DNA of 64,000 nucleotides from Elusimicrobiota bacterium (lineage in GTDB: Bacteria > Elusimicrobiota > UBA8919), in assembly GCA_028718185.1 (NCBI GenBank), contig JAQUMH010000004.1, positions 10,334-74,333 of the forward strand, written 5' to 3'. Below are positions 988-57,297 of this stretch, in pieces. Each line of letters starts with the position of its first letter. Position 1 is the first letter of the stretch. The translations under genes were made by a program, and so were the position numbers. The notes below the pieces were generated by a model that saw only the letters and a list, made by a program, of their open reading frames with translations, searched no databases and was not told the DNA's origin.

Positions 988-3900
988 TTACTTTATCAGT
1001 CCTATTTTTCCGGTCTTCTTTTTACCTGTTCCGTCTTCTATCTGGTATATATATACTCCCTTACCTACTTTGTCGCCATCGTCATTCTTTCCATCCCACT
1101 CGAGCCAGCCAAGATTACCAAAATCGAGCTCTTTGAGTTCTCTCACTAATTCACCTGTCACACTATACAACTTCATAACACTGTTTATTGGAAGATTTGT
1201 TACCTTTAACTTACCTAAAACCGCTGTTGACGGATTATACGGGTTCGGATACACTTTAACATTACTCATATCTGCTGATACATAACTGCCCAATATTCTA
1301 TATGTTGAGAAATGTGTGACTGTTGCGGTAACAGTATTGTTAAATTTGTCTACTGTCTGGACACCTGTCACCAAATCCCAATCTGTCCCGTTCCAGTAAT
1401 ATATCCTTAACCCATCTTCGTTTAATGTCCCTATGTCCGTTTTTGTATATGGTATCGTTATGTTTACTGCTCGTGTGAATGTCTGGTTCTCCAGGACAGG
1501 AGCATTTTCAGCACCATATGTTAACTCGCCAAAATCATAACATATAGGATTAACTGTGTTAACATATTTCATCGTATTTCGAACTGCAGGTGCTGCACTC
1601 GTCTTTATTGACGCAAGATACTTGTTCGTAGATAACACGCCTGTAGGTATTAGTATCTTTAATCCATTGGCTCCCCGTATTGTTCCACCCTGGTAGCCTA
1701 CTAACTTTGAGATATACATATCACTGAAATTTATCACTACCGGCGCCGTGGTATCACCTGTTAACTCTATAGTATTTATGTCACTACGGAACGGGATTGA
1801 AACTTCCTTCTCACCTGCATCTGACTCGGTTAATGTTGAATCTGTTGTATTTAGGACACTACTCTTACTGTTCTTAGTTGTAAGAGTTATTGTCCCGGTG
1901 TAATCAGTCGCCAAACTACCCTCATCTATATTATATACCTGCACCTTAAACCTCAAACTCGCTGATGGTGTTGCTCCTACCTTGGTTGTAGTTGTCCCGT
2001 CATCATAGTAATATGTATATATTTTGTGCTTTAAGTTAGATGTTTTGAAACTGTATTGTGATGATGTTGCAAGGTTACCGGATGAGTCACGGCTGTAGAC
2101 TTTGTAATAATAGGTCTTCCCTTTCTGTAGCCCGGTAATAGGGACACTGTGTAATCTTGTAGGTGTTGTATCTAATGCAGTTGTCGTACCCATTGCCGTT
2201 GTAGTTCCGTATGCTACCTGTGAATCTGAGTTCTCATCAGTATTCCACGTTATCACAGCACTATTTATTGTTACTCCGGCTGATACATTGCTTATTACAG
2301 GCGGATTAGGGTCATTAAGAATAGTTGTAAAACTGTAATCGCCGGTCGTTGTCGTGTTACCATTCATATCTACAGACACCATCCTGTAATGATATAATGT
2401 GCTTTGAGTAAGCCCGCTTAATGTAACACTATGCAAATACACCCCAGTGGCATCTGTTACCGGAGTTGCACTGCCATAACTTGTCGTTAATCCATATTCT
2501 ATCTTACTGTTTGCTAACTCATTTGTTGTCCATGTTATAACCGAACCATTGCCGGTTATGTTAGTTGGTATTACTACACTTACTGTTGGCGGTGTTGTAT
2601 CCGGAGTTATACTTATCAACTTGATGTAATCAAAATTACCGGTATCTGTACTACCGGCGTCCATTACTAACTTCATTATCTGGTTGCCTGCAGTAAGCGT
2701 TACTGAGTTTGCGACTGTTATATCTGTAAATGCCTGCCAATTAACAGTATTAGGTACGCTTACCGATGGTGTTATTACAAGTGGTGTTCCATTGTGAGGA
2801 CCAAATTCAATATGGAACGGACTTGCATTTGATATTCCGCAACCTGCTCTTGCTATTACTTTATAGTTGCCACTTTGATTTACATTTATACTATATTCTA
2901 ACCATTCGGTTGGTACTGCAAAACCTATATCGTAACCACCAGTTGTGATTGCTTCAATATCCACTCCCTCGGTTAGCCTGTATGCTCCGCCTAAATTGTC
3001 GGAAGTTGTATCATGATATGATAAGCCCTCACCACTACCTCCGCTTATTATCCAATCAAAATTCTCTGCCTCTATCGTTGTTGTTCCTGTTACTATATTC
3101 CATGGATACCCGCTATTGCCATACGACTGCTGCGTTGAAATGATTGTTACTGTGTATGCTACACTATTTACTGAACTATCGGTCATACCAGTTTTGAACG
3201 CACGGGCACGGACTGTTGCACTCGCAGTTAATGTAAACGGTGCTGAATATAATGTTGACGATGATGTCGGGTCTGTTCCGTTTGTTGTATATCTTATCTC
3301 TGCCCCGCTGGTTGCACAACCTAATGTTACTGTAACAGAACTTATATATGTTCCTGCTGCCGGGCTAATTGTTGGTGTCGCCACTACACTTGGAGTATCT
3401 GCAATTATTTTTACTAATTTAATGAAGTTAATATTACCACAAGTAGTTGCTACATTAGAATCCATTACTAACTTCATTATCTGGTTGCCTGCAGTAAGCG
3501 TTACTCCTGTTGAAAGTGTTACATCCGTCCATGTCTGCCAGCCGGTTGTATTAGGTATACTTACTGATGGTATTGTTTGAACATAAGTAGCATTATTTTT
3601 AGCGAACTCAAGATGTATTGGACCATTACCTGACAGTTGACTGGCTCCTCTAACTAATATCTTATATTGTCCATCCTGATTAACATTTATACTGTATTCC
3701 AGCCACTCGGTTGGTGCTGTATTCTCCACATCGTATCCAGCACCCGTATCGGTGCATGCTTCCACATCTACTCCTTCTGTTGTCCTGTATGCACCACCCT
3801 CATTGCTGGTTGTTAAATCATGGTATGAATTACCTTCTCCGGTACCACTCGTCATCATATCGTAATCTTCTGCCTGTATAGTTGTTGTCCCTGTTCCTAT

Positions 3901-4308
3901 CAACCATGCTACGCCCGCGGGATATGCCTGCTGTTGTGGTGTAACAGCTGTTACTGTATATGCCACACTATTTACTGAACTATCGGTCATTGCAGCTTTG
4001 AACGCACGGGCTTTTACTGTTGCACTCGCAGTTAATGTAAATGGTGTGGAGTATAATGTTGACAATGATGTCGGGTCTGTTCCATTTGTTGTATATCTTA
4101 TTGAAGCTCCACCGGTTGTACAACTAAGTGTTACAGTAACAGAACTTGTATATGTTCCTGCATTTGGACTAATTGTCGGTGTATCTACCATATTAGGTAT
4201 ATCTGCATTTATTTTCACTAAATTAATATAGTTAAAATTACCTGCAGCTTCCAATGTACCTGCGTCCATTACTAATTTAAATATCTGATTGCCTGCAGTA
4301 ATCGCCAC
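988..4308 (-). CDS. C-terminal fragment of giant surface protein A. It contains tandem CBM6 plus chitobiase/beta-hexosaminidase C-terminal (CHB_HEX_C)-like modules, two FN3-like domains, a beta-sandwich region and a T9SS type-A C-terminal sorting domain (ends KIGLIK). It begins mid-domain with a GTG inside a CBM6.
   Basis: CBM6 hallmarks are visible (IxAEDYD...GEG.YHD...YRTTEGVDVE...GEWLEYS.NV...GNYK...HLEF...AGNQIMKLVMD). The CTD motif is YPNPYNP...KLYSVTGELVRELKE...WDGKNDDGDKVGKGVYIYQIE...KIGLIK. The ORF starts in the middle of a CBM6 (VAITAGNQIFKLVMD). Confidence 0.7.
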   Translation of the reverse strand: MAITAGNQIFKLVMDAGTLEAAGNFNYINLVKINADIPNMVDTPTISPNAGTYTSSVTVTLSCTTGGASIRYTTNGTDPTSLSTLYSTPFTLTASATVKARAFKAAMTDSSVNSVAYTVTAVTPQQQAYPAGVAWLIGTGTTTIQAEDYDMMTSGTGEGNSYHDLTTSNEGGAYRTTEGVDVEACTDTGAGYDVENTAPTEWLEYSINVNQDGQYKILVRGASQLSGNGPIHLEFAKNNATYVQTIPSVSIPNTTGWQTWTDVTLSTGVTLTAGNQIMKLVMDSNVATTCGNINFIKLVKIIADTPSVVATPTISPAAGTYISSVTVTLGCATSGAEIRYTTNGTDPTSSSTLYSAPFTLTASATVRARAFKTGMTDSSVNSVAYTVTIISTQQSYGNSGYPWNIVTGTTTIEAENFDWIISGGSGEGLSYHDTTSDNLGGAYRLTEGVDIEAITTGGYDIGFAVPTEWLEYSINVNQSGNYKVIARAGCGISNASPFHIEFGPHNGTPLVITPSVSVPNTVNWQAFTDITVANSVTLTAGNQIMKLVMDAGSTDTGNFDYIKLISITPDTTPPTVSVVIPTNITGNGSVITWTTNELANSKIEYGLTTSYGSATPVTDATGVYLHSVTLSGLTQSTLYHYRMVSVDMNGNTTTTGDYSFTTILNDPNPPVISNVSAGVTINSAVITWNTDENSDSQVAYGTTTAMGTTTALDTTPTRLHSVPITGLQKGKTYYYKVYSRDSSGNLATSSQYSFKTSNLKHKIYTYYYDDGTTTTKVGATPSASLRFKVQVYNIDEGSLATDYTGTITLTTKNSKSSVLNTTDSTLTESDAGEKEVSIPFRSDINTIELTGDTTAPVVINFSDMYISKLVGYQGGTIRGANGLKILIPTGVLSTNKYLASIKTSAAPAVRNTMKYVNTVNPICYDFGELTYGAENAPVLENQTFTRAVNITIPYTKTDIGTLNEDGLRIYYWNGTDWDLVTGVQTVDKFNNTVTATVTHFSTYRILGSYVSADMSNVKVYPNPYNPSTAVLGKLKVTNLPINSVMKLYSVTGELVRELKELDFGNLGWLEWDGKNDDGDKVGKGVYIYQIEDGTGKKKTGKIGLIK

Positions 4309-4376
4309 ATTGGTTGCAACTTCTACATCTATCCATGTTTGCCAACCACCTGTTGCCGGAACAGTGATTGGTGGTG

Positions 4377-7300
4377 TTATACTATAGTACCAAATTCAAG
4401 ATGTATAGGATTACCGGTAGTTGCAAGTCCATTAGCTGTTCTTAGTATAATTTTGTATTCACCACTTTGATTTACATTTACACTATATTCAAGCCATTCA
4501 CCTGGCTGTGTCCAACCTACATCATAACCATTACCGGTATCGGTACATGCTTCCACATCTACTGCCTCTGTTGTCCTGTATGCACCACCTTCATTGCTTG
4601 TTGTTAAATCATGGTATGAATTACCTTCTCCGGTACCACTCGTCATCATATCGTAATCTTCTGCTTGTATTGTTGTTGTCCCTGTTCCTATCAACCATGC
4701 TACGCCCGCGGGATATGCCTGCTGTTGCGGCGTAACGGCTGTTACTGTATATGCTGCGCTATTTACTGAACTGTCGGTCATTGCAACTTTGAACGCACGG
4801 GCTTTTATTGTTGCACTCGCGGTTAATGTAAACGGTGCGGAGTATAATGTTGACAATGATGTCGGGTCTGTGCCGTCAGTTGTATATCTTATTGCGGCCC
4901 CACTGGTTGTACAACTAAGTGTTACAGTAACAGAACTTGTATATGTTCCTGCATTTGGACTAATTGTCGGTATTGAAACCACAGGTAAATCTGCATTTGC
5001 TTTTATTAATTGGATGTAGTTAATATCTCCATTACCGGATGCAGAACTATTGTCCATAACCAACTTCATTGTCTGGTTACCTGCGTTAAGTGTTACTCCG
5101 GGTGAAAGTGTTACATCTGTGAATGTATCGTAACTACCTGTGGGAGGTGTGCCTGCTGACGGTGTTGTTTGAACATAAGTTGCATTATTTTGGACGAATT
5201 CAATGTGTATCGGACCACCGTTGATTGTATCTCCGTTGGCGCCCCTAAGTATTATTTTGTAGTTACCGGCTTGATTCACATTTACGCTGTATTCTAACCA
5301 CTCACCCGGTGCTGTCCAGCCTACCTGGTAACCAGCGCCTGCATCTGAAACAACTTGTCGGACATCTACTCCTTCCGTCGTCCTGTAATCATTACCCATC
5401 GAATTACCTTCATTGAGAGATGCTGTATCATGATATGCCTCACCCTCACCGGTACCACTCGTCATCATATCGTAATCTTCTGCCTGTATAGTTGTTGTCC
5501 CTGCTCCTATTAACCACGCTACGCCGGCAGGATATGCCTGCTGCGTTGCCGGCGTACCTCCGGTTATAGTTACTACTTGTGCTGATGTCGTGGCTGTAGT
5601 ATTATTATTATCTGTTGCTTTCGCCGTTATACTGTAACTTCCCGCAGGAACATTATTCCATACAAACTCATATGGCGAACCGGTGTCTGTTCCAAGCCAT
5701 GTACTGCCGTTGTAAAAATCTACTTGTTTTATACCTAAAGAGCTGGATGCATCTACATCTATAGTTAAAGTTGCAGGTTCCTTACCGCCATTTGAAACGT
5801 TAATTGAGGTTATACTTACATTTGGCGGTATAACAGCTGTTGTATCCAATATCCGCAGAGCTATATCTTCAGTATAAGCCGGTGGTGTTAATACCTTAGA
5901 ACCTGTCGAATTTTGTGTAAAGGTTTCTGTCTTATCTATATTCCCTGTTTTAGTATTAACCCACTCTGCTTTATAATTGCCCGCTACTAAATTAACCGTA
6001 AGCGAAGCTTGACCTCCTGATCCTAAATAATAAGCATACTGTTTGTTACTACTATTACCAACCAGCGCTCTCACAGCCGGAGCTCTTGAACTGTCAGGTG
6101 TCATTTTAACAAAATTAACGGAATGAATAAAATCTTTAGCAATTTTAATAATACCGCGTAAAGACGGGTCACCTGTTGTAAGTCCGCATTGTGTGCCGTC
6201 GGCACACATTGTGCATTTAACCGAACCATCCGGTACCAGATAGGTGAACGAGTCATCACACAAATTCCATAGTGCACCACCGGCTAAAATCCATTTCCAT
6301 AACATTCTGCGAATTTTAAGATAATTATCACCTTGATATGTTACCTCGGTACATGCTAAAGGTTTGTTATAACTTAAGTAATTAGCAGTAAGATCAGATT
6401 GAGCATCGGGTTCTTCATCATAATGATCCCATGCAATCACATTTGCATTTGTAAAAGGAACAGGATCGCCATTATTATCACCGACAGCGTTTTGAACAAT
6501 AAGATGCTTTTTCGGGAGGGATGCCTCTGCTGCGATTATTTTATTCATTGTGTTACTGTCAAATGAACCTGACATAACTCTATTAGTTTCAGTTCCATTG
6601 TAATTAGGTTCCATTGTTAGAAGATACATAACATTGTCAAATCCATTTAATTCTGTAACCACCTTAGTAATCATAGCGTTTATATATGGTGTCAAACCTC
6701 CGTTACTGTTAAGATCCCAAACACTATTTAAACCACTGGTTGTCCAAGAAGCTGTGTTTCCTACGCCGTTGATATTATTAATTGAATTCATGGGATTACG
6801 TTTCCAGAATTCATCACCCGGAAGATCATTCCGGTTCCAAAAAGGAATGAAAAAGACAAAGTCCACTACTATACCGCGGTCACTAGCTTTCTGAACGAAA
6901 TCTTTGAGACGGGGAAAATATGAATTAGCCGACGTGCCTTGATCGTCCCACTTGGACAGATCAAATTTATATGTGTTCAGGTCTACAGTTCTTCTCCAAG
7001 GACAGACAAATTTGTTATCATCCGGACCAAGAGGGTTATCTCTATAATTCCACCAGTTGTGATAACCTGGATGATTCCACCAATTGTTTCCGGCTCCTTC
7101 AGCATACATTCCGGAACAAATTTGCACATAATTAAGTCCTTTGGACTGGAGTTCATTCAAATATGGAACATAATCAAAAGCAAGATTCATTACCGAACCA
7201 TAATGTTCATTGGACCCAACCAGGACTGTCGGTTTGCCTTTATATAAAAAGTAATGCGGATTATCAGGATGAAGTTTTATCGGCTCTGTAGTTATTACTT

Positions 7301-10064
7301 TCGTGCCTGGAGTTCCTATTGTTGCAGTCAAACTGCGCCATGCGGATTCTATCGTATCTTTAGTGGTTGCATAATCGCGACTATCGGCAAAACCTATTGT
7401 AAAATATGCCGGTGTAAAATTCATATTCTTTACTAAATAATCTGCACCTCTACCAAACCCGAACACTGTCATTGGAGTTGTAGGACCTGCCATTGTATAG
7501 TATGTATCATATAAATTATCCGGTTGGTTATGGTTAATTACATATAAACTCCTGTTTATTGTTCCATCAGCAAAATACACCCACTCGGGGTCAGGTAAAT
7601 CTATGTTTGACGCTGTGGTCGCGGTTATATTCATTTGTGTATTGTTTGATTGTACTATATAATCAGAAGCAGTATTTAATGTCCCACCGGGGGTTCCTTC
7701 GTATAAAAACCAATAATTTCTTGAAGGATCTCTCTGATACAGAGTCATTCTTGCATATTTAGGAAATATATCCCAGTAACATTTCCAATTGTTGTCACTA
7801 CTTATTGAGTTTATCCTGACTTTCAATGGTCCCTGACTTACTATGTTACTTGTTGATGCTCCTTTACTTGCTGATGAACCATCAAACCCCGGATGAAAAT
7901 AACAGTTCAGTGTGGTATCATGCACCATATTTGGTATTCCCCGGTATTCGCCTGATGCTTGATTACCTACTGAATAACTAAGCCAATCGTTATTCTGGGA
8001 ATCTACCATGCTGGAAAAACCTGCTCCTATCTTATGATAATAATATGTTGCATTCGCTGTATCAAACTTATAACTTGACTGTCCCTCATCCGTTACATTA
8101 TCCGTTAATGTTACCTGATTTGTAAAATTAACTTTTGTTATTGATGAATCTACATCAAAATATATCCTGAAATATCTCGTTGCGTTTGCATTTGTAGTAC
8201 CACTCATCATAAATGTAACTGTACCGATTGCATTACTTGCCGCATTATATGCAGAATCCTTATCAAACTGAAATACTACACTATCATTTATTATTGTATT
8301 ACCTGTACTATCGGTCTCTCTCACTCTTAAAGAATTTTCATTTAAACTGCCATTTACACTAAGGGCTGTAAGATACTGTGTAAAATTAACTGCTACTTCT
8401 ACAGGTTTATCGGACCTTGCATAACTGCCGACTGCCACTGTTACCGGTACATAATATAATGGGTCACCCTGAGTAGGAAGTGTAATAGTAAATGCCGCTG
8501 TTACGATATTGCTGTCTAACATACCAGATTTATAAGCCATTGCTTTTATTGTAGCATTACCAGATAATGTTATTGGACCGGAATATACATTACCGTTTGT
8601 TGAGGATGGGTTACTGCCATCGGTTGTATACTTTACAACTGCTCCGCCTGTTGCACAATTAATATATACTGTCTGGGCGCTGGTATATGTCCCACCATTG
8701 GGATTTATTACAGGGTCTGCCACCAACTGCATTCCGCCGGTATTATACCGGACAAGAAGCACAGGTCCGGGAAGCAGAACTTCGGTTCCATGTTCAACTG
8801 TCTGGTTAACAACTTTAACAGTCATAGCAGTATTACTCAAAAGTGATTTATCAACGGGTCTTGTTCCAAGTGCATAAGTATAAAGAGTATTGGAATCTTG
8901 AGTGTTGCCGGCATTGACAGCATTAATAGTAAACGGAGCGTTATCACTTGCCCATGTTCTCCAATACATTATACTTTCTATTGCTTTAGTTAAGTCATGC
9001 AAACCGCTCGATTGTGCAGCGGGTATTGTTATAGTACAAGATATATCAACACCTGTACGCTGTGCCCAGTCCGCCGGTAAGCTATTAGGTTTATAAATCA
9101 CTGTTGTGTATCCAGCGTGTGATATTGTAAGATTTGTTATTTCGGGTGTTACATACCAGTAACCATTTGCAGCTTTTATCCTTGCTTTTAGTTTTACACT
9201 GCCTTGGTCGGGTATATATTTAGTATTCCATGTTACTCCCCACGGTGCTGAGGTCGCACTTCCGACATTGTCCCTGATTGTTAAATCAGTGGAACTTTGC
9301 ACGGTTCCTAACCTGTTCCAGAATTCATGCCAATCTAAATAATAATTATTACCATTTTCATCAAACCCGTCATAATATGCAACATAATCTACTTTGGATA
9401 TACTTGAACCTGCCGGAGGTGTAGCGTTTAGTGAAATTGCAACCGATTCACCAATTGTACCGGCAGTTGGTCCTGTAATAGTACCTGATGGTGCTGAAAC
9501 TGCACTGGGTGTATAATATAATCTTAAGATTACACCATATTGTCCCCATTGTCCCCATCCATGAAATCCATCACATCCGGAATTGTCACCGCATGCAAAG
9601 TTAAAATTATTGGTGCCTGCTGTTAGTTGTGATAATTGACTTGTTATATTTATCTCAACATTATCTTGTAGCATATAACTATTTACATCCCCACCGCATG
9701 CTCCAAGATTAGCGATACTAACAGTATTATTAGGTACAGAAATCCAAGAATTACCATTTATATTAATAACTTTATTTATAGTTCCGGCATGTCCGCCCCA
9801 TCTGTCTATGATTATTTCAGCCCTTATTACATTCTGCAAATCTCCCGATACTAAACTTATTGTTTGAGCGTCATTTGGCAAAAAAGTTTTAGCAGTTGCA
9901 TTTGCTGTAGTTGGATCTGTTACGCGCCAGCCGTTATCATTATCAGCACACCTGCTATGAAATTCCTTATACACCTCTCCCGACTGCGGCGACGCATTTG
10001 AAAGCATACTTAATCCTATCATTACTACTGATAACATCATACACCATCTGATAATCTTACCCAT
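4377..10064 (-). CDS. N-terminal fragment of giant surface protein A. It has a signal peptide (MGKIIRWCMMLSVVMIGLSMLSNA), a chitobiase-C-like domain, a putative GH5/GH140-like TIM-barrel region (PIKLHPDNPHYFLYKGKPTVLVGSNEHYG...), an Ig-like domain, then CBM6 plus CHB_HEX_C modules. It ends inside a CBM6 (...NPIHLEFGTIV*).
   Basis: The likely true start is ATG at 10064, preceded by GGAGGG (SD). The ORF-track start at 10118 is an in-frame read of the 5' UTR. The same N-terminus with its SD is conserved in paralog B at 44537. The CDS terminates mid-domain. Confidence 0.7.
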   Translation of the reverse strand: MGKIIRWCMMLSVVMIGLSMLSNASPQSGEVYKEFHSRCADNDNGWRVTDPTTANATAKTFLPNDAQTISLVSGDLQNVIRAEIIIDRWGGHAGTINKVININGNSWISVPNNTVSIANLGACGGDVNSYMLQDNVEINITSQLSQLTAGTNNFNFACGDNSGCDGFHGWGQWGQYGVILRLYYTPSAVSAPSGTITGPTAGTIGESVAISLNATPPAGSSISKVDYVAYYDGFDENGNNYYLDWHEFWNRLGTVQSSTDLTIRDNVGSATSAPWGVTWNTKYIPDQGSVKLKARIKAANGYWYVTPEITNLTISHAGYTTVIYKPNSLPADWAQRTGVDISCTITIPAAQSSGLHDLTKAIESIMYWRTWASDNAPFTINAVNAGNTQDSNTLYTYALGTRPVDKSLLSNTAMTVKVVNQTVEHGTEVLLPGPVLLVRYNTGGMQLVADPVINPNGGTYTSAQTVYINCATGGAVVKYTTDGSNPSSTNGNVYSGPITLSGNATIKAMAYKSGMLDSNIVTAAFTITLPTQGDPLYYVPVTVAVGSYARSDKPVEVAVNFTQYLTALSVNGSLNENSLRVRETDSTGNTIINDSVVFQFDKDSAYNAASNAIGTVTFMMSGTTNANATRYFRIYFDVDSSITKVNFTNQVTLTDNVTDEGQSSYKFDTANATYYYHKIGAGFSSMVDSQNNDWLSYSVGNQASGEYRGIPNMVHDTTLNCYFHPGFDGSSASKGASTSNIVSQGPLKVRINSISSDNNWKCYWDIFPKYARMTLYQRDPSRNYWFLYEGTPGGTLNTASDYIVQSNNTQMNITATTASNIDLPDPEWVYFADGTINRSLYVINHNQPDNLYDTYYTMAGPTTPMTVFGFGRGADYLVKNMNFTPAYFTIGFADSRDYATTKDTIESAWRSLTATIGTPGTKVITTEPIKLHPDNPHYFLYKGKPTVLVGSNEHYGSVMNLAFDYVPYLNELQSKGLNYVQICSGMYAEGAGNNWWNHPGYHNWWNYRDNPLGPDDNKFVCPWRRTVDLNTYKFDLSKWDDQGTSANSYFPRLKDFVQKASDRGIVVDFVFFIPFWNRNDLPGDEFWKRNPMNSINNINGVGNTASWTTSGLNSVWDLNSNGGLTPYINAMITKVVTELNGFDNVMYLLTMEPNYNGTETNRVMSGSFDSNTMNKIIAAEASLPKKHLIVQNAVGDNNGDPVPFTNANVIAWDHYDEEPDAQSDLTANYLSYNKPLACTEVTYQGDNYLKIRRMLWKWILAGGALWNLCDDSFTYLVPDGSVKCTMCADGTQCGLTTGDPSLRGIIKIAKDFIHSVNFVKMTPDSSRAPAVRALVGNSSNKQYAYYLGSGGQASLTVNLVAGNYKAEWVNTKTGNIDKTETFTQNSTGSKVLTPPAYTEDIALRILDTTAVIPPNVSITSINVSNGGKEPATLTIDVDASSSLGIKQVDFYNGSTWLGTDTGSPYEFVWNNVPAGSYSITAKATDNNNTTATTSAQVVTITGGTPATQQAYPAGVAWLIGAGTTTIQAEDYDMMTSGTGEGEAYHDTASLNEGNSMGNDYRTTEGVDVRQVVSDAGAGYQVGWTAPGEWLEYSVNVNQAGNYKIILRGANGDTINGGPIHIEFVQNNATYVQTTPSAGTPPTGSYDTFTDVTLSPGVTLNAGNQTMKLVMDNSSASGNGDINYIQLIKANADLPVVSIPTISPNAGTYTSSVTVTLSCTTSGAAIRYTTDGTDPTSLSTLYSAPFTLTASATIKARAFKVAMTDSSVNSAAYTVTAVTPQQQAYPAGVAWLIGTGTTTIQAEDYDMMTSGTGEGNSYHDLTTSNEGGAYRTTEAVDVEACTDTGNGYDVGWTQPGEWLEYSVNVNQSGEYKIILRTANGLATTGNPIHLEFGTIV

Positions 10065-10119
10065 ACCTTTCCCTCCAGTTTTTCTATATATTTGATTCCT
10101 AATTTGGTTTATTTTCATA

Positions 10120-10200
10120 TTGTAAAGTTATAGAGTTATAGAGTTTTAGAGTTTGTAGAGTTAAAACCCTACAACCCTATAACTCTATAACGCTTTTTCT
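10120..10200. repeat. Long inverted repeat built from GAGTTATAG / CTATAAC units (agttatagagttatagagtt...aaccctataactctataac). It would form an intercistronic stem-loop between the PorV-like gene and the start of giant gene A.
   Basis: Direct reading. The right arm is the reverse complement of the left arm. The same family is seen at 950-985, 17880-17990, 29150-29225 and 36140-36185. Confidence 0.55.
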
Positions 10201-11152: not shown

Positions 11153-11344
11153 TTTAACCTCCATTTTCTGAAATTTATTGAAACTTATTGTAATTTGTTG
11201 TAATTCTTTGTCGTTTAATTTCTTCTAATTTCTATCTATTTCTATTAATTTCTATAACTATTACCAAAAAATAAAAGAAGCTTACTAAAAATTACATACC
11301 TATCTAAATGCGCTATGCACTTTTGGTATATAATTTCTAATACT

Positions 11345-50749: not shown

Positions 50750-50929
50750 AATATTATTTATTTATTTATACCTGTCTATGGTAAGCAACTACAAAACTGG
50801 ATTTTTGACCAAGGACTACGGACTTCGGACGCTTTTATTTTACTTCTCAAACTTAATATTAGTCTCAATATTTTTCCCAATTAGCTAATTCTCTAATCAA
50901 CTAATTAACTGGCACCATAAGATAGTGCG

Positions 50930-53900
50930 CTACTTTTCCACACCAATCTTTATTTTCTTTGTTTCGCCTGTACCTTTTATATATAATACATATACACCAC
51001 TCGCCACTGTCTTACCACCTTCATTCTTACCATCCCATACTATACTGCCTCTTTCTCCGGTTTCTACCAACTCCCTTGCTAATTCTCCAACTAATGTGTA
51101 TATTTTTACCACTGCTCCGGCTGTTAAATTATCTATAGTCATTCCTTGAGCGTGCTTCATCGGATTAAATGGACTTGGATACACTTTTACATTACTTAAA
51201 TCAGTTACCGGAACTAATTCCAGTAACGCAAATTTGCTTAAATGATTACTTTTGGCTATTACCTTATTATAACTTGAATATACTGTTGATTGTAACGCTT
51301 CCCACCTCTTGTTATTTTCATCATACCAGCCTACTACTAACTTACTCTCGTCATAACCAGCTATTGAAATGTCGTCATAACTTATCGTTATAAGCATTTC
51401 CTTTGGCTGCAGGTTCTTGTCATTTACTATTTCTATTCCATAGCCTAATACCTTTATTGCCCGCCTGTCACTTACAGGCACATCTATTGCTTTTAACGTT
51501 AAATTCGCTGTAGTAGAAAACGCACCTATTGGCACCAAAACACTTATCTCACTATCCACACTGCTATTCTCACTTATTGGTGTTACCGCCATCCCGCTTG
51601 ATATCTGTATCTGCGGACTCACTATCCTTGTTACACTTAACGGCTTGCATATATAATTCTGTCCTTCCATATCAATACTTAAACTTGTGTATTCCATCTT
51701 CTTAGGCCAGAACCGCCAATCTTCTTTTTTAGGCTCTACACTGTAATCGCCGATTCCTAAATCCATAAACTCGTAATATCCATCTTCTCCAGTAATATAA
51801 CTGTTAATAATGCCACCACTTAAATTCATTGTTATCCCGCTTATACTGCTGCTGCTCTTGTATACTTGCACATTGCCAATGATATTGGATACTGTGGTAG
51901 TAGGAGCATATGTTACTGTTATTGTTGTTTCTTTCTGATTACTATGTGTAGATATATCAGTCGCTCTGACATATACCGTATTGGGACCTTTCTTCAATCG
52001 CACGGTTCCGCTCCATGTTTCTAATCCATTAACTGCTGAATATGTCCCGCTTTCACCTACCTTTATTTCTACTTTGCTTAATCCTAAATTATCTGATGCT
52101 GTTCCTCTTAAAGATAATAATGAGTTCGTTACTGTTGTGTTGTTTCCTGGTGTTGTAATTATTATTATTGGAGGAGTGGTCTCGGATAGTGCCGGGATAC
52201 CATATACTTCAAATTCATATAATGAATATCCATAAGGTCCTCTCGCAAGCCCGTTCATACGGACATATCTGCCACTACCATTTAACGCTATATCGTCTGT
52301 TCCGCCTGTTCCGCCTATCTTTGTGGCTACTGTTGTCCAGTCCATACGATTGTCTGATACTTGTATCTGGTAATCTTTTCCATATGCTGCTTCCCATCTT
52401 AATATTACTTCTGTTATGGTACACGTTATACCTAAATCTACATATATCCATTCCGAGTCACGGTACGGCGATTGTGATGCCCATCGGGTCCCAAGTTTCC
52501 CGTCTATTACATAATTAGGATTATCATTGCCATTTCCTGCTTCTACTGAAGATGCATAAGCAGTCGTACCTATTGCAAGATTTGCCGTCCCTTCTGTAGT
52601 TTTCCCACTTGCACAGTTGGATATTCCTGTCCAATTCGTAGCTACTTCATCTACTACCTTCATTGCAAAATAATAAACAGTATCTGCATTTAAGCCGTTT
52701 ACCGTATAACTCTGGTTACTACCGGCTATTAATGGCGTCGGTTCACCACTACACTGTGCTACACTTACCCAATCCCAGTTGATACTTGTTATACTATATG
52801 TCGCATAACGGATATCATAATCACTCGCCGTACCTGTGCCCCCATCATCGCCTACTGTTGACCAATTTAATACTATTGTTCTTCCTCCGGGATTACTGGT
52901 AGTTAAATCGTTTACTGTTGAAGGCGGTATCGTATCTGTCGGATCTGTTTCTTTGTTTACTATATTAGATATCCCTGACCAGTTATTTACATCGTCACCC
53001 GCCTTAATCGCAAAGTAATATATTGTACTTGAATTTAACCCTTTCACTGTGTAGGTTTGATTTGTCCCTACTGCTTGAGGAATTGGTTCATTACTGCATT
53101 GTGTAGCTGTAGCCCAATTACTGTTTGTTATAGGTGTCAATGCGTAGCGAATATCATAATTACTCGCTGTACCTATGTTACCATCGTCGCCTACTGCTGT
53201 CCAACTTAATTGGAGACTATTGCTGGTTGCAGTTGCACTCGCTAATGTGTTTATATCTGTTGGCGGGGTTGTGTCATTAAATGTTACGGTTACCTGGCTT
53301 GCTCCGGCAAGGTAATCATCCGATACGGCATGAACTGTTATTATATGATTACCTTGTGTATAGCCGGCTGTATTCCATGTGTATGTCGGACTTGCAGATA
53401 TCTTAACTAGTTTGTTATCTATAAAATAACGATATGAGACAACTGGATTGGTTGTCTCAGAATTAGGTGTAGCTGTTACTGATATATTTACGCTAGCACT
53501 TACTACAGCACCATTTACAGGAGAATTTATAGAAACGGACGGTGATAGCTTAAAAAAGTCGTCATCCATAACTTTATCATACACTGCTCTTTCTTCAGTG
53601 GTTAAATTATAAAGTTTAAATATTCCTATTCCAAGACCGGCAATCTGAGGTGAGTCTGCTCTCAAGTATTTTATCCACAAGTCATCATCCGGTGCATATC
53701 CGTCATAGATGTTTCCGCCACCAAGGATAGGAAATGTTTTTCCATCAAGCCTACGGTATTTTGCCCAGTTAGTATTCCTCTTAGTAAATGTTCTATAATC
53801 TTTGATTCCATGGTAGAAATATAACTCAGGTACATAAAAATCTATTACATCGGCTCCATTCGTCATCATTTCATCAAAACCATCTCCAAAATAAGCAGCA

Positions 53901-55447
53901 GTCACAAAAAAATTGGGATATTGTTGTTTCACCCGCCTAAGTGCATTTATGGATTTTTGGACTCGAGTATCCGAATCATTAGAAGCCCATTCGTCAATGG
54001 ATAACCCGTAATATCCTTCTTGAGCAGCCTCTAAGTAATTGTTATACATTTTTTCTTCAGTGTCAAGATACCATTCGTTAGTAATTGTATATGTCGGCAC
54101 CCTGCAAGCATAACTATATGGTATCGGAAGTTTCCCTTTTGCTATCATCCCATCGTGCCATGACTTGGTAGCCCACATTAAACCGGAAAAATTCATAGTT
54201 TCGTGAGGTTGCTCGCCAGGACCGGCACACCAGTAAATAATATATGGTATTTTTATAGGTGCGAGAGTAGGATTTGGATATATAGCACCTTCATGAAAAA
54301 GAAAATTGTTGTTCGGCAAAGTAACAAGCGGAGAAGTTGTTCCACCTGGTGAATTTGATATTGGTGACCAATTCGGCACTTCATCCGCAGCCTTTATTGC
54401 AAAGTAATATTGGGTGTTTGGAGAAAGTCCAAGTGCCATAATTGACTGGTTTGTACCAGCCCATTCTATCGGTAGCCAGTAAATGTCAATCGGTGTAGCT
54501 AAGTTCCAATCTGTTTCTGTTAATATAGGAAAAGTATAATATCTTATATCATACTTTGAAACTCTGTAGTCATTACCATCATCGCCGGGAGCAGTCCATG
54601 TAAGCGTAACTGAAGTAGGTGTGGGATTGATTGCAGCTAAATTATTTATTTGGGCCGGTGGTGTGGAGTCTGTAAGAGCTGATGTTGTCGCGCTCGGTGA
54701 ATTTGATGAAGATGACCAATTGGGCACATCATCTGCTGTTTTTATTGCAAAGTAATATTTAGTTGAAGGTGAAAGTCCGGCAATAGTGAATGTTTCTGTC
54801 CTGGACATTTCTTGCGGTGTTGGTGTAACTGCGACTTTAGTCGCAGAATCCCAGTTTGCATCTGTTATCGGTGAAAGTGAATATCTAATATCATATGAGA
54901 TATATCTTGATGCGACTATCCTTGAACTGTTGTTATCACCGGGTGCGGTCCATGTAAGTGTAACTGATTTTGCTGTTGTTCCGCTTACTATCAAATTATT
55001 TATTTTATCAGGTGGTATAGTATCTGTGAGAGCAAGAGTTGTTGCACTCGGTGATTTAGATATTGGTGACCAGTTAGACAATTTATCGCTTGCTTTGATT
55101 GCAAAATAATATTGTGTTGAAGGTGAAAGTCCAAAGACAATAAACGATTCAGCACAACCTGCAGGCTTTGGATTCGACTCACCTGTAACCTGAGTTGCAG
55201 AATCCCAGTTAGCATCCGATATTGGTGAAAGAGAGTACCTGATATCATATGTTATCGCTGTTCCTGTGTTGCCGTTATCGCCGACAGACCTCCATACAAG
55301 TGTTATTGTCTTGGATGTCGGGTATGCCGTCAGAAAATATGTTATCTTACCGGGCACACCGGATAATACACTTGTTGTAAACATACATGCTACAAAAATG
55401 CATATTATAAACATACAATATTTTTTTACCAATTTCTGTCTGAACAT
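50930..55447 (-). CDS. Large secreted protein (1505 aa). It has FN3 x3, the conserved unknown 330 aa domain (the same family as the C-termini of the three 900 aa paralogs), FN3 x2, an F5/8 type C discoidin domain, Ig-like domains and a type-2 CTD (ends KIGVEK).
   Basis: The unknown domain reads NNNFLFHEGAIYPNPTLAPIKIPYIIYWCAGPGEQPHETMNFSGLMW...GYYGLSIDEW...FFVTAAYFGD...DDDLWIKYLRADSP. The discoidin region reads GTRWASQSPYRDSEWIYVDLG...YGKDYQIQVSDNRMDWTTV...GRYVRMNG...YSLYEFEVYG. The CTD resembles that of 46919-50749. Confidence 0.7.
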   Translation of the reverse strand: MFRQKLVKKYCMFIICIFVACMFTTSVLSGVPGKITYFLTAYPTSKTITLVWRSVGDNGNTGTAITYDIRYSLSPISDANWDSATQVTGESNPKPAGCAESFIVFGLSPSTQYYFAIKASDKLSNWSPISKSPSATTLALTDTIPPDKINNLIVSGTTAKSVTLTWTAPGDNNSSRIVASRYISYDIRYSLSPITDANWDSATKVAVTPTPQEMSRTETFTIAGLSPSTKYYFAIKTADDVPNWSSSSNSPSATTSALTDSTPPAQINNLAAINPTPTSVTLTWTAPGDDGNDYRVSKYDIRYYTFPILTETDWNLATPIDIYWLPIEWAGTNQSIMALGLSPNTQYYFAIKAADEVPNWSPISNSPGGTTSPLVTLPNNNFLFHEGAIYPNPTLAPIKIPYIIYWCAGPGEQPHETMNFSGLMWATKSWHDGMIAKGKLPIPYSYACRVPTYTITNEWYLDTEEKMYNNYLEAAQEGYYGLSIDEWASNDSDTRVQKSINALRRVKQQYPNFFVTAAYFGDGFDEMMTNGADVIDFYVPELYFYHGIKDYRTFTKRNTNWAKYRRLDGKTFPILGGGNIYDGYAPDDDLWIKYLRADSPQIAGLGIGIFKLYNLTTEERAVYDKVMDDDFFKLSPSVSINSPVNGAVVSASVNISVTATPNSETTNPVVSYRYFIDNKLVKISASPTYTWNTAGYTQGNHIITVHAVSDDYLAGASQVTVTFNDTTPPTDINTLASATATSNSLQLSWTAVGDDGNIGTASNYDIRYALTPITNSNWATATQCSNEPIPQAVGTNQTYTVKGLNSSTIYYFAIKAGDDVNNWSGISNIVNKETDPTDTIPPSTVNDLTTSNPGGRTIVLNWSTVGDDGGTGTASDYDIRYATYSITSINWDWVSVAQCSGEPTPLIAGSNQSYTVNGLNADTVYYFAMKVVDEVATNWTGISNCASGKTTEGTANLAIGTTAYASSVEAGNGNDNPNYVIDGKLGTRWASQSPYRDSEWIYVDLGITCTITEVILRWEAAYGKDYQIQVSDNRMDWTTVATKIGGTGGTDDIALNGSGRYVRMNGLARGPYGYSLYEFEVYGIPALSETTPPIIIITTPGNNTTVTNSLLSLRGTASDNLGLSKVEIKVGESGTYSAVNGLETWSGTVRLKKGPNTVYVRATDISTHSNQKETTITVTYAPTTTVSNIIGNVQVYKSSSSISGITMNLSGGIINSYITGEDGYYEFMDLGIGDYSVEPKKEDWRFWPKKMEYTSLSIDMEGQNYICKPLSVTRIVSPQIQISSGMAVTPISENSSVDSEISVLVPIGAFSTTANLTLKAIDVPVSDRRAIKVLGYGIEIVNDKNLQPKEMLITISYDDISIAGYDESKLVVGWYDENNKRWEALQSTVYSSYNKVIAKSNHLSKFALLELVPVTDLSNVKVYPSPFNPMKHAQGMTIDNLTAGAVVKIYTLVGELARELVETGERGSIVWDGKNEGGKTVASGVYVLYIKGTGETKKIKIGVEK

Positions 55448-55561: not shown

Positions 55562-56596
55562 TTAGAATTTCACATTCAATGCTACTCTATGTGTATCGCC
55601 TAAATCGCCAAACGGAACAAATGCATAATCTAACCCATATCCCTTATAATCTAAACCAGCTCCTACACTTATCCCTTTTAATCCACTTATGTCTTTTGTT
55701 TTGGTGTTGTATCCTGCCCTGCCTATTAGTGTCGTTCCTTCACCCGCGTCATACTTATACTCAGTCCCTGCTCCTATTCCTATCCCACTGTCATTTACTG
55801 CTGTTATATCTAACCCGACTAACCATTCCGGTTGAATATTATATCCTCCACCTACACGTATTGTCATAGGTAAATTATCACTCTCTTCTACATACTTCAT
55901 CTTACTGCCTACATTCTGAACTGCTAACCCTATACTCATTCCGCTATCTATTGGCTTATATAACATTCCTACATCACCGGCTATCGCTGTCGCACTCTCC
56001 TTTATCTTGCTGCTTATATACTTTACTCCTACTCCTAATGACACATCGTCACTTACTATATTCCCATAACTTAACGTAACAGACATATCTGTTGGACTAT
56101 AATTACCACCTAATATTCCATTTATATCGCTTTCTTTTATATTACCATAATTTATATATTGCACACCTAACCCTATTACTCCTACACCTGCTATCGGCTG
56201 TCCATAACCTACCCAACTATAACCTATATCTTCAAACCAGACCGCATGCATTACACTTATTGATGTTTTTTCTATTCCAGCTAATCCTGCTGTATTCCAA
56301 TATATACTACTTGCTCCTTCACATACTCCTACTCCGATATCGCCCATCCCACTACTACGGGCGCCGGCTCCTATTTTTAAAAACTGGACTGCACTTGTCC
56401 CTGTATCATCTTTGCTAAAGGCAGCGTATGTGCTGCTTGAAACAAGAAGCAAGAAGCAAGAGGCAAGAAGCAAGAAACAAGATAACATCTGATTTCTGAC
56501 TTCTGGTTTCTGACTTCTAATTTCTGACATTGGACATTGTCCGCCACTAAACATTGGTGAAGCAGGGACTTTTGACTGTCTCTTTAAATTTTTCAT
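55562..56596 (-). CDS. PorV/PorQ-family outer-membrane beta-barrel protein, paralog 3. It is divergent (about 30-35% identity to paralogs 1 and 2) and has an unusual repeat-encoded N-terminal extension.
   Basis: VQFLKIGAGARSSGMGDIGVGVCEGASSIYWNTAGLAG... aligns with the PorV-like motif of paralogs 1 and 2. The C-terminus ends in F. ATG 56596 has a good SD (AGAGGT). An alternative start is ATG at 56488 (MLSCFLLLASCFLLLVSSSTYAAF). Confidence 0.5.
   Translation of the reverse strand: MKNLKRQSKVPASPMFSGGQCPMSEIRSQKPEVRNQMLSCFLLLASCFLLLVSSSTYAAFSKDDTGTSAVQFLKIGAGARSSGMGDIGVGVCEGASSIYWNTAGLAGIEKTSISVMHAVWFEDIGYSWVGYGQPIAGVGVIGLGVQYINYGNIKESDINGILGGNYSPTDMSVTLSYGNIVSDDVSLGVGVKYISSKIKESATAIAGDVGMLYKPIDSGMSIGLAVQNVGSKMKYVEESDNLPMTIRVGGGYNIQPEWLVGLDITAVNDSGIGIGAGTEYKYDAGEGTTLIGRAGYNTKTKDISGLKGISVGAGLDYKGYGLDYAFVPFGDLGDTHRVALNVKF
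56439..56530. repeat. Simple-sequence repeats inside the 5' coding region of PorV-like paralog 3: heptamer CAAGAAG/CTTGCTT x about 6 (56439-56481), then 13-mer tttctgacttct(g/a)(g/a) x about 2.5 (56491-56530).
   Basis: Direct reading. On the sense strand it reads cttgttt cttgctt cttgcct cttgctt cttgctt cttgttt, encoding the hydrophobic core of the signal peptide. Related caagaagcaag repeats occur at 20760-20810 and 23430-23480. Confidence 0.6.
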
Positions 56597-56659
56597 AAAT
56601 ACCTCTAATTTTATACTTTAAAGTGTAACATATAATTGATAATTTCTCGGCTGCGTTCG

Positions 56660-56700
56660 GGATTGTTTTATTGGTCTCCAGTAGGGGACTCAATAAAACA
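56660..56700. repeat. Perfect hairpin ttgttttattggtctcc-agta-ggggactcaataaaacaa (third copy).
   Basis: Matches 16018-16060 and 45774-45815. Confidence 0.5.
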
Positions 56701-56750
56701 AAAAAGAAGTATATTAGAAAATCAATCAATTAGTTAATTAAGTTTTTAAC

Positions 56751-56782
56751 CTAATTCGCTAATTCACTAATTTACTAATCCA
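56751..56782. repeat. Tandem octamer array (ctaattcg ctaattca ctaattta ctaatcca).
   Basis: Identical to 45865-45896. Confidence 0.55.
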
Positions 56783-56965
56783 CTTCTTTTGTTTTCGGTA
56801 ACCTTGCTGGCTTAATAGCCACAAGCGGTTTATCACAAAGCGGTTTACACGCTTGTGATTTACTTGCTTGTGGTTTGTCGTTTATCGGCAACCTGTTGGC
56901 GTTATCTATCTTAGCCCTTGGTTTTGCGAACTCATCCCGCTTTCACGGGAGTAGCCTTTTCGGAG
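56783..56965. repeat. Conserved intergenic structured element, copy 5 (core only).
   Basis: The core is conserved. The hairpin variant cccg ctttca cggg has an extra insertion (acaagcggtttatcacaaagcggtttacacgcttgtgatttacttgcttg) that is shared with copy 1. Confidence 0.6.
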
Positions 56966-57297
56966 TCTTACTTTCTTATACCTTTACCCCCTTTTGATTA
57001 CTTATCTTATTTGCTATTTCTTAAGGTCTTTAGTATCTAAACATTACTTTTTGATTTGTATCTTCAAACAGTAGTATAACGCATAGTTACATAAATGTCA
57101 ATATCTATAATTGCCGTTATCTTATCTATAATTGCTAAAGAATGCTAATTAGTTATAATTACATTTTATGAGTAAAACTAAATCTTATTTAAAAACCCTC
57201 TGATAGTTAATGCTCATATCTTGCTAATACATAATAACTTCTTGTGCTTTACTATATATATAACACACTATTGATTTTCTGTCAAGGTCTTTTTTTT
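56966..57297 (-). promoter_or_regulatory. Conserved 330 nt regulatory block, copy 2. It has a minus-strand promoter (TTGACA at 57102-57097, N17, TATACT at 57079-57074) and the direct repeat ATAATTGC-N13-ATAATTGC (57107-57135) abutting the -35.
   Basis: About 85% identical to 46081-46410. It lies between the divergent AraC paralog 2 and the leader / PorV-like 3 / cargo operon. Confidence 0.45.

Follow-up and report, generated by a model that had tools for sequence, protein, structure and literature searches.

The locus considered here raises a double question, namely why genes for outer-membrane barrels resembling PorV stand again and again beside genes for very large proteins ending in a C-terminal sorting domain (CTD) of the kind known from type IX secretion systems (T9SS), and what controls the expression of such units. 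The stretch of DNA analysed, called hereafter the window and meaning its whole length of 64 kb, belongs to an Elusimicrobiota bacterium and bears nearly all of its genes on the minus strand. The initial annotation, made from the sequence alone, had described a cassette occurring three times, in which a PorV/PorQ-like outer-membrane protein (OMP) precedes a giant CTD cargo; three minus-strand units of this kind are indeed present, with the reservations that the first giant gene is broken and that the third unit holds two CTD proteins. The most informative feature of the locus, overlooked by that annotation, is a leader of the c-di-GMP-I (cyclic di-GMP-I) riboswitch type. Taken as a whole, the window probably carries a c-di-GMP- and sugar-responsive surface-adhesin regulon, of which the five units (c0 to c4, the three barrel-cargo units being c1, c2 and c3) would each begin with a sigma-70-type promoter with putative AraC sites and continue with a divergent c-di-GMP-I riboswitch leader. 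These units would express Sec-exported glycan-binding proteins of 1074 to ~3000 amino acids (aa), built of multiple carbohydrate-binding modules (CBM), immunoglobulin-like and fn3 domains and ending in type-A-like CTDs, to which three of the units would add a barrel; each barrel would in turn bind the CTDs of cargos of its own subtype, shuttling or anchoring them on the outer membrane. The barrels and cargos are as follows, the bit scores being those of the NCBIfam model NF033709 for the PorV/PorQ family (cut-off 90 bits):

10202-11152, minus strand: OMP1 of unit c1, PorV/PorQ-family barrel, 172.1 bits.
988-10064, minus strand: giant cargo A of unit c1 (start at 10064), with signal peptide, Big_7, CBM6/CBM35, CHB_HEX_C and fn3-like domains and a type-A-like CTD of subtype 1.
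44694-45647, minus strand: OMP2 of unit c2, PorV/PorQ-family barrel, 178.0 bits, 85% identical to OMP1.
36189-44537, minus strand: giant cargo B of unit c2, ~2780 aa, with signal peptide, three Big_7, three CBM6, CHB_HEX_C and fn3-like domains and a CTD of subtype 1.
55562-56596, minus strand: OMP3 of unit c3, PorV/PorQ-family barrel, 204.8 bits, 39% identical to OMP1 and OMP2.
50930-55447, minus strand: 1505-aa CTD protein following OMP3, with fn3, Big_7 and F5/8 type C domains and a CTD of subtype 2.
46919-50749, minus strand: 1276-aa protein, the second CTD protein of unit c3, with PKD, PA14 and Big_7 domains and a CTD of subtype 2.
12635-15859, minus strand: 1074-aa CTD protein of unit c4, with CBM6 and fn3 domains and a CTD of subtype 1; it has no barrel gene of its own.

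The leader had been announced ahead of each cassette, where it does stand in all three cases; its copies are five rather than three, c0 and c4 being the additional ones, and they are organised as follows:

327-621, minus strand (read 621-327): c0 leader, with the aptamer 5' half and proximal 3' strand at 621-532, a variable hairpin at 531-459 and the distal 3' strand at 458-429.
434-327, minus strand: c0 terminator-like hairpin, U tract included; the gene behind it begins at ~239 and extends beyond the window.
11265-11542, minus strand (read 11542-11265): c1 leader, with aptamer 11542-11455, insert 11454-11383, distal strand 11382-11353 and terminator-like hairpin 11358-11265.
45806-46084, minus strand (read 46084-45806): c2 leader, with aptamer 46084-45997, insert 45996-45935, distal strand 45934-45905 and terminator-like hairpin 45910-45806.
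56695-56969, minus strand (read 56969-56695): c3 leader, with aptamer 56969-56882, insert 56881-56821, distal strand 56820-56791 and terminator-like hairpin 56796-56695.
16051-16398, minus strand (read 16398-16051): c4 leader, with aptamer 16398-16309, distal strand 16259-16230 and terminator-like hairpin 16235-16051; unit c4 (16051-16661) also holds extra GC-rich hairpin repeats.

Copy c4 directly precedes the gene of the 1074-aa CTD protein, and c0 that of a signal-peptide protein lying across the left end of the window, which is not PorV-like and for which a protein search with the 80-aa N-terminus returned no candidates. Each of the five CTD proteins and three barrels of the window is encoded downstream of a leader copy, and among the remaining window genes only that of the c0 product lies behind one. 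When the window was run at an E-value threshold against the Rfam model RF01051 (c-di-GMP-I, or GEMM-I; clan CL00126; gathering score 35 bits), the five copies aligned at full length and on the correct, i.e., minus, strand, with 32.0 bits for c3, 29.5 for c2, 26.9 for c4, 26.3 for c1 and 21.8 for c0; on their own, such scores would say little. An aptamer core of ~60 nucleotides (nt) is invariant from copy to copy, and the hairpins on both sides of it have diverged beyond alignment. Helix P1b carries a GAAA loop in all five copies and has undergone compensatory changes at three of its six pairs, every cell of the alignment remaining paired, and the equivalents of G20, A47 and C92 (in AAAAG-GC, CGCAAA and GCCGA, respectively, following the cmscan and cmsearch alignments) are conserved throughout. 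With the distal strand only, a receptor-like GCUAAG/CAAGC element with a continuing 6-bp helix is obtained. Together with the relatives described below, the invariant core, the changes in P1b and the conserved positions lead us to read the five leaders as divergent members of the GEMM-I (c-di-GMP-I) riboswitch lineage, with ligand binding as a prediction.

A more sceptical view would take the leader for merely a duplicated promoter and 5' untranslated region, or for a mobile repeat, sensing nothing and resembling GEMM-I by chance. It can draw on RF01051 scores below the gathering score, with whole-window E-values of 0.02-6.8, on the paralogy of the five copies, which are hence not independent matches, on the GC hairpins that the leaders also hold, resembling repetitive extragenic palindromic (REP) sequences or miniature inverted-repeat transposable elements (MITE), and on a terminator-like hairpin uncoupled from the aptamer in silico. 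The compensatory changes in P1b speak against it, and so does the preservation of the core between hairpins that have fully diverged; besides, c0 and c4 precede genes outside the OMP cassettes, so that the leader has been kept independently of the cassette. Relatives found elsewhere further reduce this view to a very improbable one. In locus L093, a riboswitch scoring 81.3 bits with RF01051 is followed by a 494-aa protein with a Por_Secre_tail domain (CTD) and then by a PorV-family barrel, and in locus L091 (Endomicrobiales, GCA_016929635.1) one of 68.0 bits by an 875-aa CTD protein and then a barrel; both exceed the gathering score and occupy the same position ahead of a CTD-protein/PorV-family operon. 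Further copies occur in L053, where a promoter, a GEMM-I aptamer (RF03167, 53 bits, E 1.4e-11), a 701-aa Por_Secre_tail protein and a PorV-family barrel, whose nearest named relatives are from Elusimicrobia and Endomicrobiales, succeed one another, and in L009, where the aptamer lies between the barrel gene and that of a 1654-aa CTD protein (46 bits, E 2e-10 with model R2). The latter model, a covariance model built from L091, L093 and L053 only and searched over 0.9 Mb, detects each of the window's five copies (at 27-32 bits and E 3.5e-6 to 8e-5, the lowest being c0 with 27.2 bits and E 8e-5), and besides these and L009 it returned nothing under E 0.1 over the 0.9 Mb.

As regards the searches themselves, a first regular expression depending on a GNRA loop had missed every relative, and a narrow model, R1, gave only a marginal match in L053 (21.5 bits, E 0.028), which led to the four outside instances; a looser regular expression and R2 found them. 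A scan of genome contigs with an exact 19-mer of the aptamer core gave a single chance match, in a coding region of a Pseudomonadota metagenome-assembled genome (MAG). Rfam at the gathering threshold detected no riboswitch at nine other cargo-barrel loci, which indicates that most such operons are not riboswitch-controlled, and one is seen at only two of the 80 loci obtained in a metagenome scan (two peptide patterns taken from a three-sequence alignment of the barrels; relatives 29-37% identical). The GEMM-I lineage may be read as recurrently controlling CTD proteins and barrels in Elusimicrobiota, in an association that is not universal.

These outside loci call for some remarks in their own right. 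PorV-family barrels fused at their C-terminus to tetratricopeptide repeats (TPR) are encoded in L053 (2225-4210) and L093 (10423-12333), where a CARDB/Big_5 CTD protein comes before each barrel and two histidine-kinase genes come after it; they form a second, syntenic barrel type adjoining the riboswitch operon in both loci. In L093, a 75-aa gene overlapping the 81-bit riboswitch (4152-4379) was probably called in error. In L002 (4299-5905), from a Firestonebacteria MAG, a PilZ-domain gene lies directly upstream of the barrel gene, and in L036 a complete rRNA operon (11411-17195) comes just downstream of the cargo-barrel pair.

Membership of the GEMM-I lineage leaves room for another ligand, since the aptamer could be a specificity variant recognising, e.g., 3',3'-cyclic GMP-AMP (3',3'-cGAMP) or another dinucleotide. 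GEMM-I variants of changed specificity are on record, namely the cGAMP switches of Geobacter (refs 94 and 95 of PMC11477304) and the RF03167/UAU variants, which belong to the same Rfam clan as RF01051. The window aptamers, for their part, deviate from the canonical form in that nucleotides are inserted behind P1b and the middle part of P2 is changed. In the GEMM-I family, selectivity for cGAMP goes with an A at position 20; all five window copies have a G at this position, with CGCAAA (A47) and GCCGA (C92) intact. Moreover, L091 and L093 score as plain c-di-GMP-I, and a gene encoding a GGDEF protein (10880-11656) is found ~4 kb further downstream than the L091 barrel gene. A changed ligand therefore seems highly unlikely, and c-di-GMP is retained below as the presumed effector.

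How such a leader would act is best approached from its relatives. In L093 and L053, an insert in the apical loop of P2 carries a decoy of the P2 3' strand (GCAGGCUGCCGAAAAU in L093, GGCUGGUUGCCG in L053), and the true P2 3' strand, AGCCGGGUUGCC, doubles as 5' arm in a canonical terminator made of GCCGGGUUGCC...GGCAAGCCGG and then U7 (the hairpin of L093 lying at 4325-4375). A four-segment attenuator can be proposed for these two loci, where pairing of segment 1 with 2 plus 3 with 4 would bring about termination and ligand-stabilised pairing of 1 with 3 would permit read-through, i.e., an ON switch; the decoy-strand layout would then constitute a compact attenuator and a model for the coupling of GEMM-I aptamers to terminators. 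In the window, segment 1 is the P2 5' strand AACCAAGGGCU and segment 2 the proximal strand AGCCAACAGGUUGCCGAUAA, after which come a variable hairpin of 47-73 nt and segment 3, namely the distal strand AAGCCAGCAAGGUUACCGAAAAC. The distal strand corresponds column for column to the canonical 3' strand, AGC bulge included, and it alone lets P2 run past the tetraloop-receptor-like GCUAAG/CAAGC; RNAfold favours the distal pairing in four of the five copies, by 3-9 kcal/mol. Directly 3' of it stands a long hairpin with a conserved base (AAAACAAAAGAAG / CUUCUUUUUUGUUUU, U tract) and a variable upper part. The P2 5' strand of the window leaders would pair either with the proximal decoy or with the distal strand, completing in the second case a canonical-looking P2, and the same ON sign would have high c-di-GMP lead to adhesin display, a sign that we infer from L093 and L053 by analogy and from c-di-GMP biology.

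Two repeated elements adjoin these structures. Upstream of the aptamer, c0, c1 and c4 carry small GC-rich hairpin repeats (CCCCGCTTACTGCGGGG, TCGGTGCAGTAGCTCCGA) in either orientation, which c2 and c3 lack; the spans concerned (15902-16561, 633-768 and 11533-11625) look like MITE/REP-like insertions. The arms of the terminator-like hairpins of c0, c2 and c3 consist of tandem 8-nt units (GAATTAGT / AAATTAGT), at 350-430, 45830-45905 and 56720-56790, respectively.

Upstream of the leaders, the promoters and the AraC-family regulators are distributed as follows:

816-788, minus strand: c0 promoter TTGACT-N17-TATACT, with two CAATATTAGTCA direct repeats at 849-837 and 828-816, 21 bp apart and abutting the -35 box.
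11744-11716, minus strand: c1 promoter TTGACT-N17-TATACT, with weaker 21-bp-spaced repeats, ACAATTACAGACA and ACAATCTCAGCCA, read by eye.
46215-46187, minus strand: c2 promoter TTGACA-N17-TATACT, with two GCAATTATrGATA repeats (46249-46236, 46228-46215) and, at 46277-46263, a third site akin to them.
57101-57073, minus strand: c3 promoter TTGACA-N17-TATACT, with GCAATTATAGATA repeats at 57135-57122 and 57114-57101.
16661-16633, minus strand: c4 promoter TTGACA-N17-TATATA.
11791-12582, plus strand: AraC-family regulator 1 (cupin and HTH_18), with its own promoter TTGACA-N16-TATAAT at 11657-11684, divergent from c1.
57578-58375, plus strand: AraC-family regulator 2, sharing 50% identity with regulator 1; its promoter TTGACA-N16-TATAAT is at 57505-57532, divergent from c3.

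Units c0, c2 and c3 share a common design, with two direct repeats of 12-14 bp spaced by 21 bp, the proximal one abutting the -35 box. The repeat itself is of one type in c2 and c3 (GCAATTATrGATA) and of another in c0 (CAATATTAGTCA); in c1 it is weak, and the repeat scan reported no direct repeat there. The promoter, the direct repeats taken for an operator and the two divergent AraC-family genes beside the first and third cassettes had all been described initially and are borne out, the TTGACA-N17-TATACT form holding for c2 and c3 (TTGACT in c1); the duplicated block described at the same time as 330 nt long does occur in two units and proves longer, extending over 766 nt at 83% identity (45768-46526 versus 56657-57411). 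Both regulators belong to the AraC family by PF12833/PF00165, with HTH_18 at 70.9 and 61.2 bits and both Cupin_2 and AraC_binding over their cut-offs. The 21-bp-spaced repeats may be taken as predicted AraC-type activator sites, which together with the leader would place the units under dual control by a sugar-type effector and c-di-GMP. A second promoter-like block (AAAGACCTTGACAGAAAA...GTGTTATATA) lies ~190 nt further upstream in c2 (46365-46408) and c3 (57251-57304); its homology to the sole c4 promoter (16627-16680) suggests tandem promoters.

Turning to the proteins, all three OMPs exceed the NF033709 cut-off (172-205 bits), in keeping with their designation as PorV/PorQ-like in the initial annotation. 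None passes the equivalog cut-offs for PorV (NF033710, 250 bits), PorQ (NF033711, 220 bits) or PorV2 (NF052325, 325 bits), the best scores being 122 for PorV (OMP3), 133 for PorQ (OMP2) and 109 for PorV2, and for OMP1 and OMP2 the PorQ model gives roughly double the score of the PorV model. The PorP/SprF model TIGR03519 gives ~20 bits against a cut-off of 90.55, and PF11751 gives 25.4 bits for OMP1 (marginally over 22.3), 21.5 for OMP2 (under it) and no match for OMP3. By sequence, the sole relative in the PDB is PorV of Flavobacterium johnsoniae (6h3i_F). An AlphaFold2 model of OMP2 (mean pLDDT confidence 87) has 14 strands, and Foldseek ranks first PorV from the translocon bound to the RemA CTD (8gl6_F, E 4e-16, template-modelling score 0.72) together with 6h3i_F, ahead of FadL and TodX. 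The three OMPs are therefore PorV/PorQ-family 14-stranded barrels of the FadL type.

This fold lends itself to another explanation, namely that the barrels are ordinary FadL-type uptake channels, co-expressed with the glycan binders to import released substrates and devoid of any CTD binding. The likeness to FadL and TodX, the weak Pfam matches to Toluene_X and UPF0164, the failure of all three barrels to pass the PorV, PorQ or PorV2 equivalog cut-offs and the presence at the locus of sugar ATP-binding cassette (ABC) transporters and a glycoside hydrolase would agree with it. FadL substrates, however, are hydrophobic rather than glycans, and the best matches in both sequence and structure are PorV, the CTD-bound complex included. 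What is conserved next to such barrels, in 40 of 71 loci, is moreover defined by the CTD and by no catalytic or binding module, the cargos varying from CARDB/Big_5 to PKD/PA14 and CBM6 proteins, and barrel subtype follows CTD subtype even where the body of the cargo differs. Plain uptake channels are thus unlikely, and a role in CTD binding is preferred.

The presence of C-terminal sorting domains on the cargos, as first annotated, is corroborated. Each of the five ends in a domain of ~88 aa matching TIGR04183, one of the two T9SS type A CTD models considered (TIGR04183 and PF18962); with a TIGR04183 cut-off of 23 bits, cargo A (26.7), cargo B (28.3) and the 1074-aa protein (24.3) lie over it, and the 1505-aa (17.2) and 1276-aa (20.0) proteins under it. 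All five CTDs match the C-terminal ends of the PorZ/PorU models more strongly, at 47-53 bits, and no match to type-B CTD models was reported for them; a hidden Markov model (HMM) built from the five found no further CTD protein in the window. Within subtype 1, i.e., A, B and the 1074-aa protein, the CTDs are 81-89% identical, within subtype 2, i.e., the 1505-aa and 1276-aa proteins, 72%, and between subtypes 42-50%. The 1074-aa protein is a mosaic, with a body ~52% identical to the 1505-aa and 1276-aa proteins and a CTD 89% identical to that of A, which points to CTDs being exchanged as modules. Domain searches detected no catalytic domain in any of the five. The 126 nt following the stop codons of the 1276-aa gene (46793-46918) and the 1505-aa gene (50804-50929) are 90% identical, indicating that the flank was duplicated along with the CTD.

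Genes A and B both open with signal peptides, their starts at 10064 and 44537 being preceded by GGAGG ribosome-binding sites. For gene A, annotated as a single gene at 988-10064, extent and start are confirmed and continuity is not, as the frame changes at ~4377-4385, inside a CBM6 module, leaving two open reading frames, 4377-10118 and 988-4308. A single-base indel accounts for the break, with ...LEFGTIV* in one frame and ...ITPPITVPATGGWQTW in another; the two halves, 46% and 78% identical to B, align with it colinearly. The more likely cause is a mistake of assembly or else recent pseudogene formation. Programmed frameshifting was also considered and rejected, no slippery motif being evident at the break.

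Does each cargo then have a barrel of its own? Among the surveyed loci, 71 had enough upstream sequence to be evaluated, and 40 of them carry, on the strand of the barrel gene, a CTD protein, often of 1600-3250 aa, whose end lies upstream of that gene by no more than 600 nt, a count that is a lower bound on account of the narrowness of the CTD HMM; in six loci a CTD protein lies just downstream of the barrel. The usual order is cargo-barrel, that of the window and of its close relative L089 (a 1779-nt contig, too short upstream to reach the leader) being barrel-cargo, and L006 also shows the adjacency. The conservation of this neighbourhood in other genomes, which had been set as a check on the initial proposal, is hence confirmed. 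Barrel subtype tracks CTD subtype, OMP1 and OMP2 going with subtype 1 and OMP3 with subtype 2. Considered together, synteny, family membership, CTD type and subtype tracking fit cargo-dedicated barrels, as first put forward, without the strict one-to-one stoichiometry then attached to them, given that OMP3 precedes two CTD proteins (1505 and 1276 aa) and that the 1074-aa protein has no barrel. By likeness to PorV with type-A CTDs, PorQ with PorZ and SprF-PorP with type-B CTDs, the barrels may be expected to hold the CTDs of their cargos.

The host had implicitly been treated as a member of the Bacteroidota; it is an Elusimicrobiota MAG, OMP2 being 100% identical to MDD5687548.1, a "PorV/PorQ family protein [Elusimicrobiota bacterium]" on a MAG contig. 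At least 14 paralogues of the OMP1/2 type, with at least 79% identity, appear among the matches listed, under accessions MDD5687362 to MDD5688551 and on eight contigs; such a single block of accessions indicates that all come from the same MAG and that the barrel family is heavily expanded there. The next relatives of OMP2 are only ~44% identical and are found in Firestonebacteria, Nitrospirota, Zixibacteria, Poribacteria and other uncultured groups. No gene for SprA/Sov, PorK/L/M/N or PorU/PorZ lies inside the 64-kb window, the only part of the genome examined. In this context, it can be proposed, tentatively and with more doubt than confidence, that Elusimicrobiota and, by annotation, Firestonebacteria and other phyla outside the Fibrobacteres-Chlorobi-Bacteroidetes (FCB) group possess a display pathway made of CTDs and PorV-type barrels, perhaps without SprA/PorKLMN, where each of the multiplied barrels would be reserved for exporting or anchoring the giant CTD protein next to it, all under the control of decoy-strand GEMM-I riboswitches. 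If this were true, the CTD/PorV pair would be a sorting unit older and more widespread than the T9SS itself.

Several points weigh against the regulon as it is proposed here. At the level of the RNA, (i) the five window aptamers all stay under the RF01051 gathering score (21.8-32.0 versus 35), (ii) 4 nt are inserted between their P1b and P1a, and the middle 3-bp helix found in P2 of the canonical relatives is absent from them, so that their binding of c-di-GMP stays a prediction, (iii) the terminator-like hairpin of the window forms in silico whether the aptamer is closed or not, (iv) no segment 4, or antiterminator partner of the distal strand, was found, duplex energies being no better than shuffled, (v) a simple terminator scan calls none of the window leader hairpins, and (vi) L091 is without a terminator, and its regulatory sign is not readable. 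At the level of the proteins, (vii) some 40% of the PorV-family loci have no adjacent CTD protein according to the narrow HMM, (viii) co-duplication of whole cassettes would alone make OMP and CTD subtypes co-vary, and (ix) SprA/PorKLMN machinery and diguanylate cyclases are without support for this genome, the window alone having been read.

The remaining features of the window concern the ends of transcripts and the region between the cassettes:

46722-46748, minus strand: intrinsic terminator closing the c3 operon 3' of the 1276-aa gene, from an intergenic terminator scan.
10119-10194, minus strand: long hairpin in the intercistronic space that separates OMP1 from cargo A, with -33 kcal/mol and z -7.9, without U tract.

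The former (46748-46722) is the only convincing intergenic terminator on the strand of c3, and no consensus terminator separates it from OMP3. The latter is one of several long, near-perfect intergenic palindromes of GTTATAGRG-type units, with related copies at 936-980, 17894-17969 and 29157-29226, which sit between or after genes and lack a U tract. Stabilising mRNA in the manner of REP sequences, or serving as processing sites, they may set the barrel-to-cargo ratio. Between the cassettes, a carbohydrate-uptake block (17990-35846) includes three paralogous CBM6/fn3/Big_7 proteins without CTD and two proteins in which solute-binding and ABC permease domains are fused (20868-23357, 29225-31666). 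A GDE_C/MGH1-like hydrolase is encoded there as well, along with a ceramidase-like protein and a DegT aminotransferase.

It remains to situate the locus with respect to known systems. With the c-di-GMP-I riboswitches of RF01051, the window leaders share the three-helix layout, the GNRA-capped P1b, the CGCAAA junction, the GCCGA tail and the 5' leader position, but they differ in scoring under the gathering score, in the 4-nt insertion after P1b, in a degenerate middle P2, in a P2 loop with a 47-73-nt insert bearing a decoy copy of the 3' strand and in their targets, namely T9SS-type CTD proteins and PorV-family barrels. Known c-di-GMP riboswitches control adhesins, pili and flagella, e.g., CD2797, CD2831, CD3246 and a pilin operon in Clostridioides difficile (PMC11477304). 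A literature search found no report of such riboswitches acting on CTD-protein/PorV-barrel targets, and a full-text search no paper joining a c-di-GMP riboswitch with the T9SS, nor riboswitches and c-di-GMP with Elusimicrobia. The coupling of the barrel-cargo pairing to a GEMM-I riboswitch and an AraC-type regulator, like the decoy-strand aptamer, thus appears as new, and would tie the "become sessile" signal of c-di-GMP at the RNA level to T9SS-type CTD cargos and PorV-family barrels. Compared with AraC/XylS systems such as araBAD and rhaBAD, the architecture is the same, with cupin and double helix-turn-helix, a divergent gene and tandem repeats abutting the -35 box, except that the sites are here predicted from sequence and that the repeat differs among units.

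The pairing of a giant cargo with its barrel had initially been presented as undescribed, which does not hold, since a cognate barrel beside a giant cargo is established in Bacteroidota. In F. johnsoniae, SprF binds the 669-kDa SprB and is required for its secretion and anchorage, and ten PorP-like genes are thought to be cargo-specific; in Porphyromonas gingivalis, PorP anchors PG1035 (PMC9143113). PorQ likewise keeps hold of the PorZ CTD, as PorV does of the PorU CTD, neither being cleaved (PMC10202324, PMC10947112); "cognate PorV-like barrels" as a general feature are the proposal of a review (PMC10202324). The window shares with the type-B pairs SprB-SprF/PorP a giant adhesin adjoining a 14-stranded barrel of the FadL family and expanded paralogues, and departs from them in that the barrels are of the PorV/PorQ family, the CTDs type-A-like and the host one of the Elusimicrobiota. 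With PorQ-PorZ and PorV-PorU it shares CTDs matching best the ends of the PorZ/PorU models and, for OMP1 and OMP2, a preference for the PorQ model; the cargos here are adhesin-like glycan binders, though, and the barrels stay below the equivalog cut-offs. What is new is therefore the PorV/PorQ-clade, type-A-like version of the pairing and its breadth in uncultured lineages outside the FCB phyla, which shows that barrels paired with cargos of their own are no peculiarity of type-B CTDs and PorP-SprF in Bacteroidota, the pairing being a widespread genomic rule for PorV/PorQ-family barrels and type-A-like CTDs of uncultured lineages (40 of 71 loci). T9SS genes have been placed in FCB phyla only (PMC11285876), and such machinery outside the FCB superphylum raises the question of the translocon used by proteins of 100-300 kDa. 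PorV of the SprA translocon (6H3I, 8GL6) is the solved structure closest to the barrels; its translocon has no known counterpart in this organism, and whereas PorV is one shuttle shared by all type-A cargos, the barrels here are multiplied (at least 14 paralogues of one subtype), each beside a cargo.

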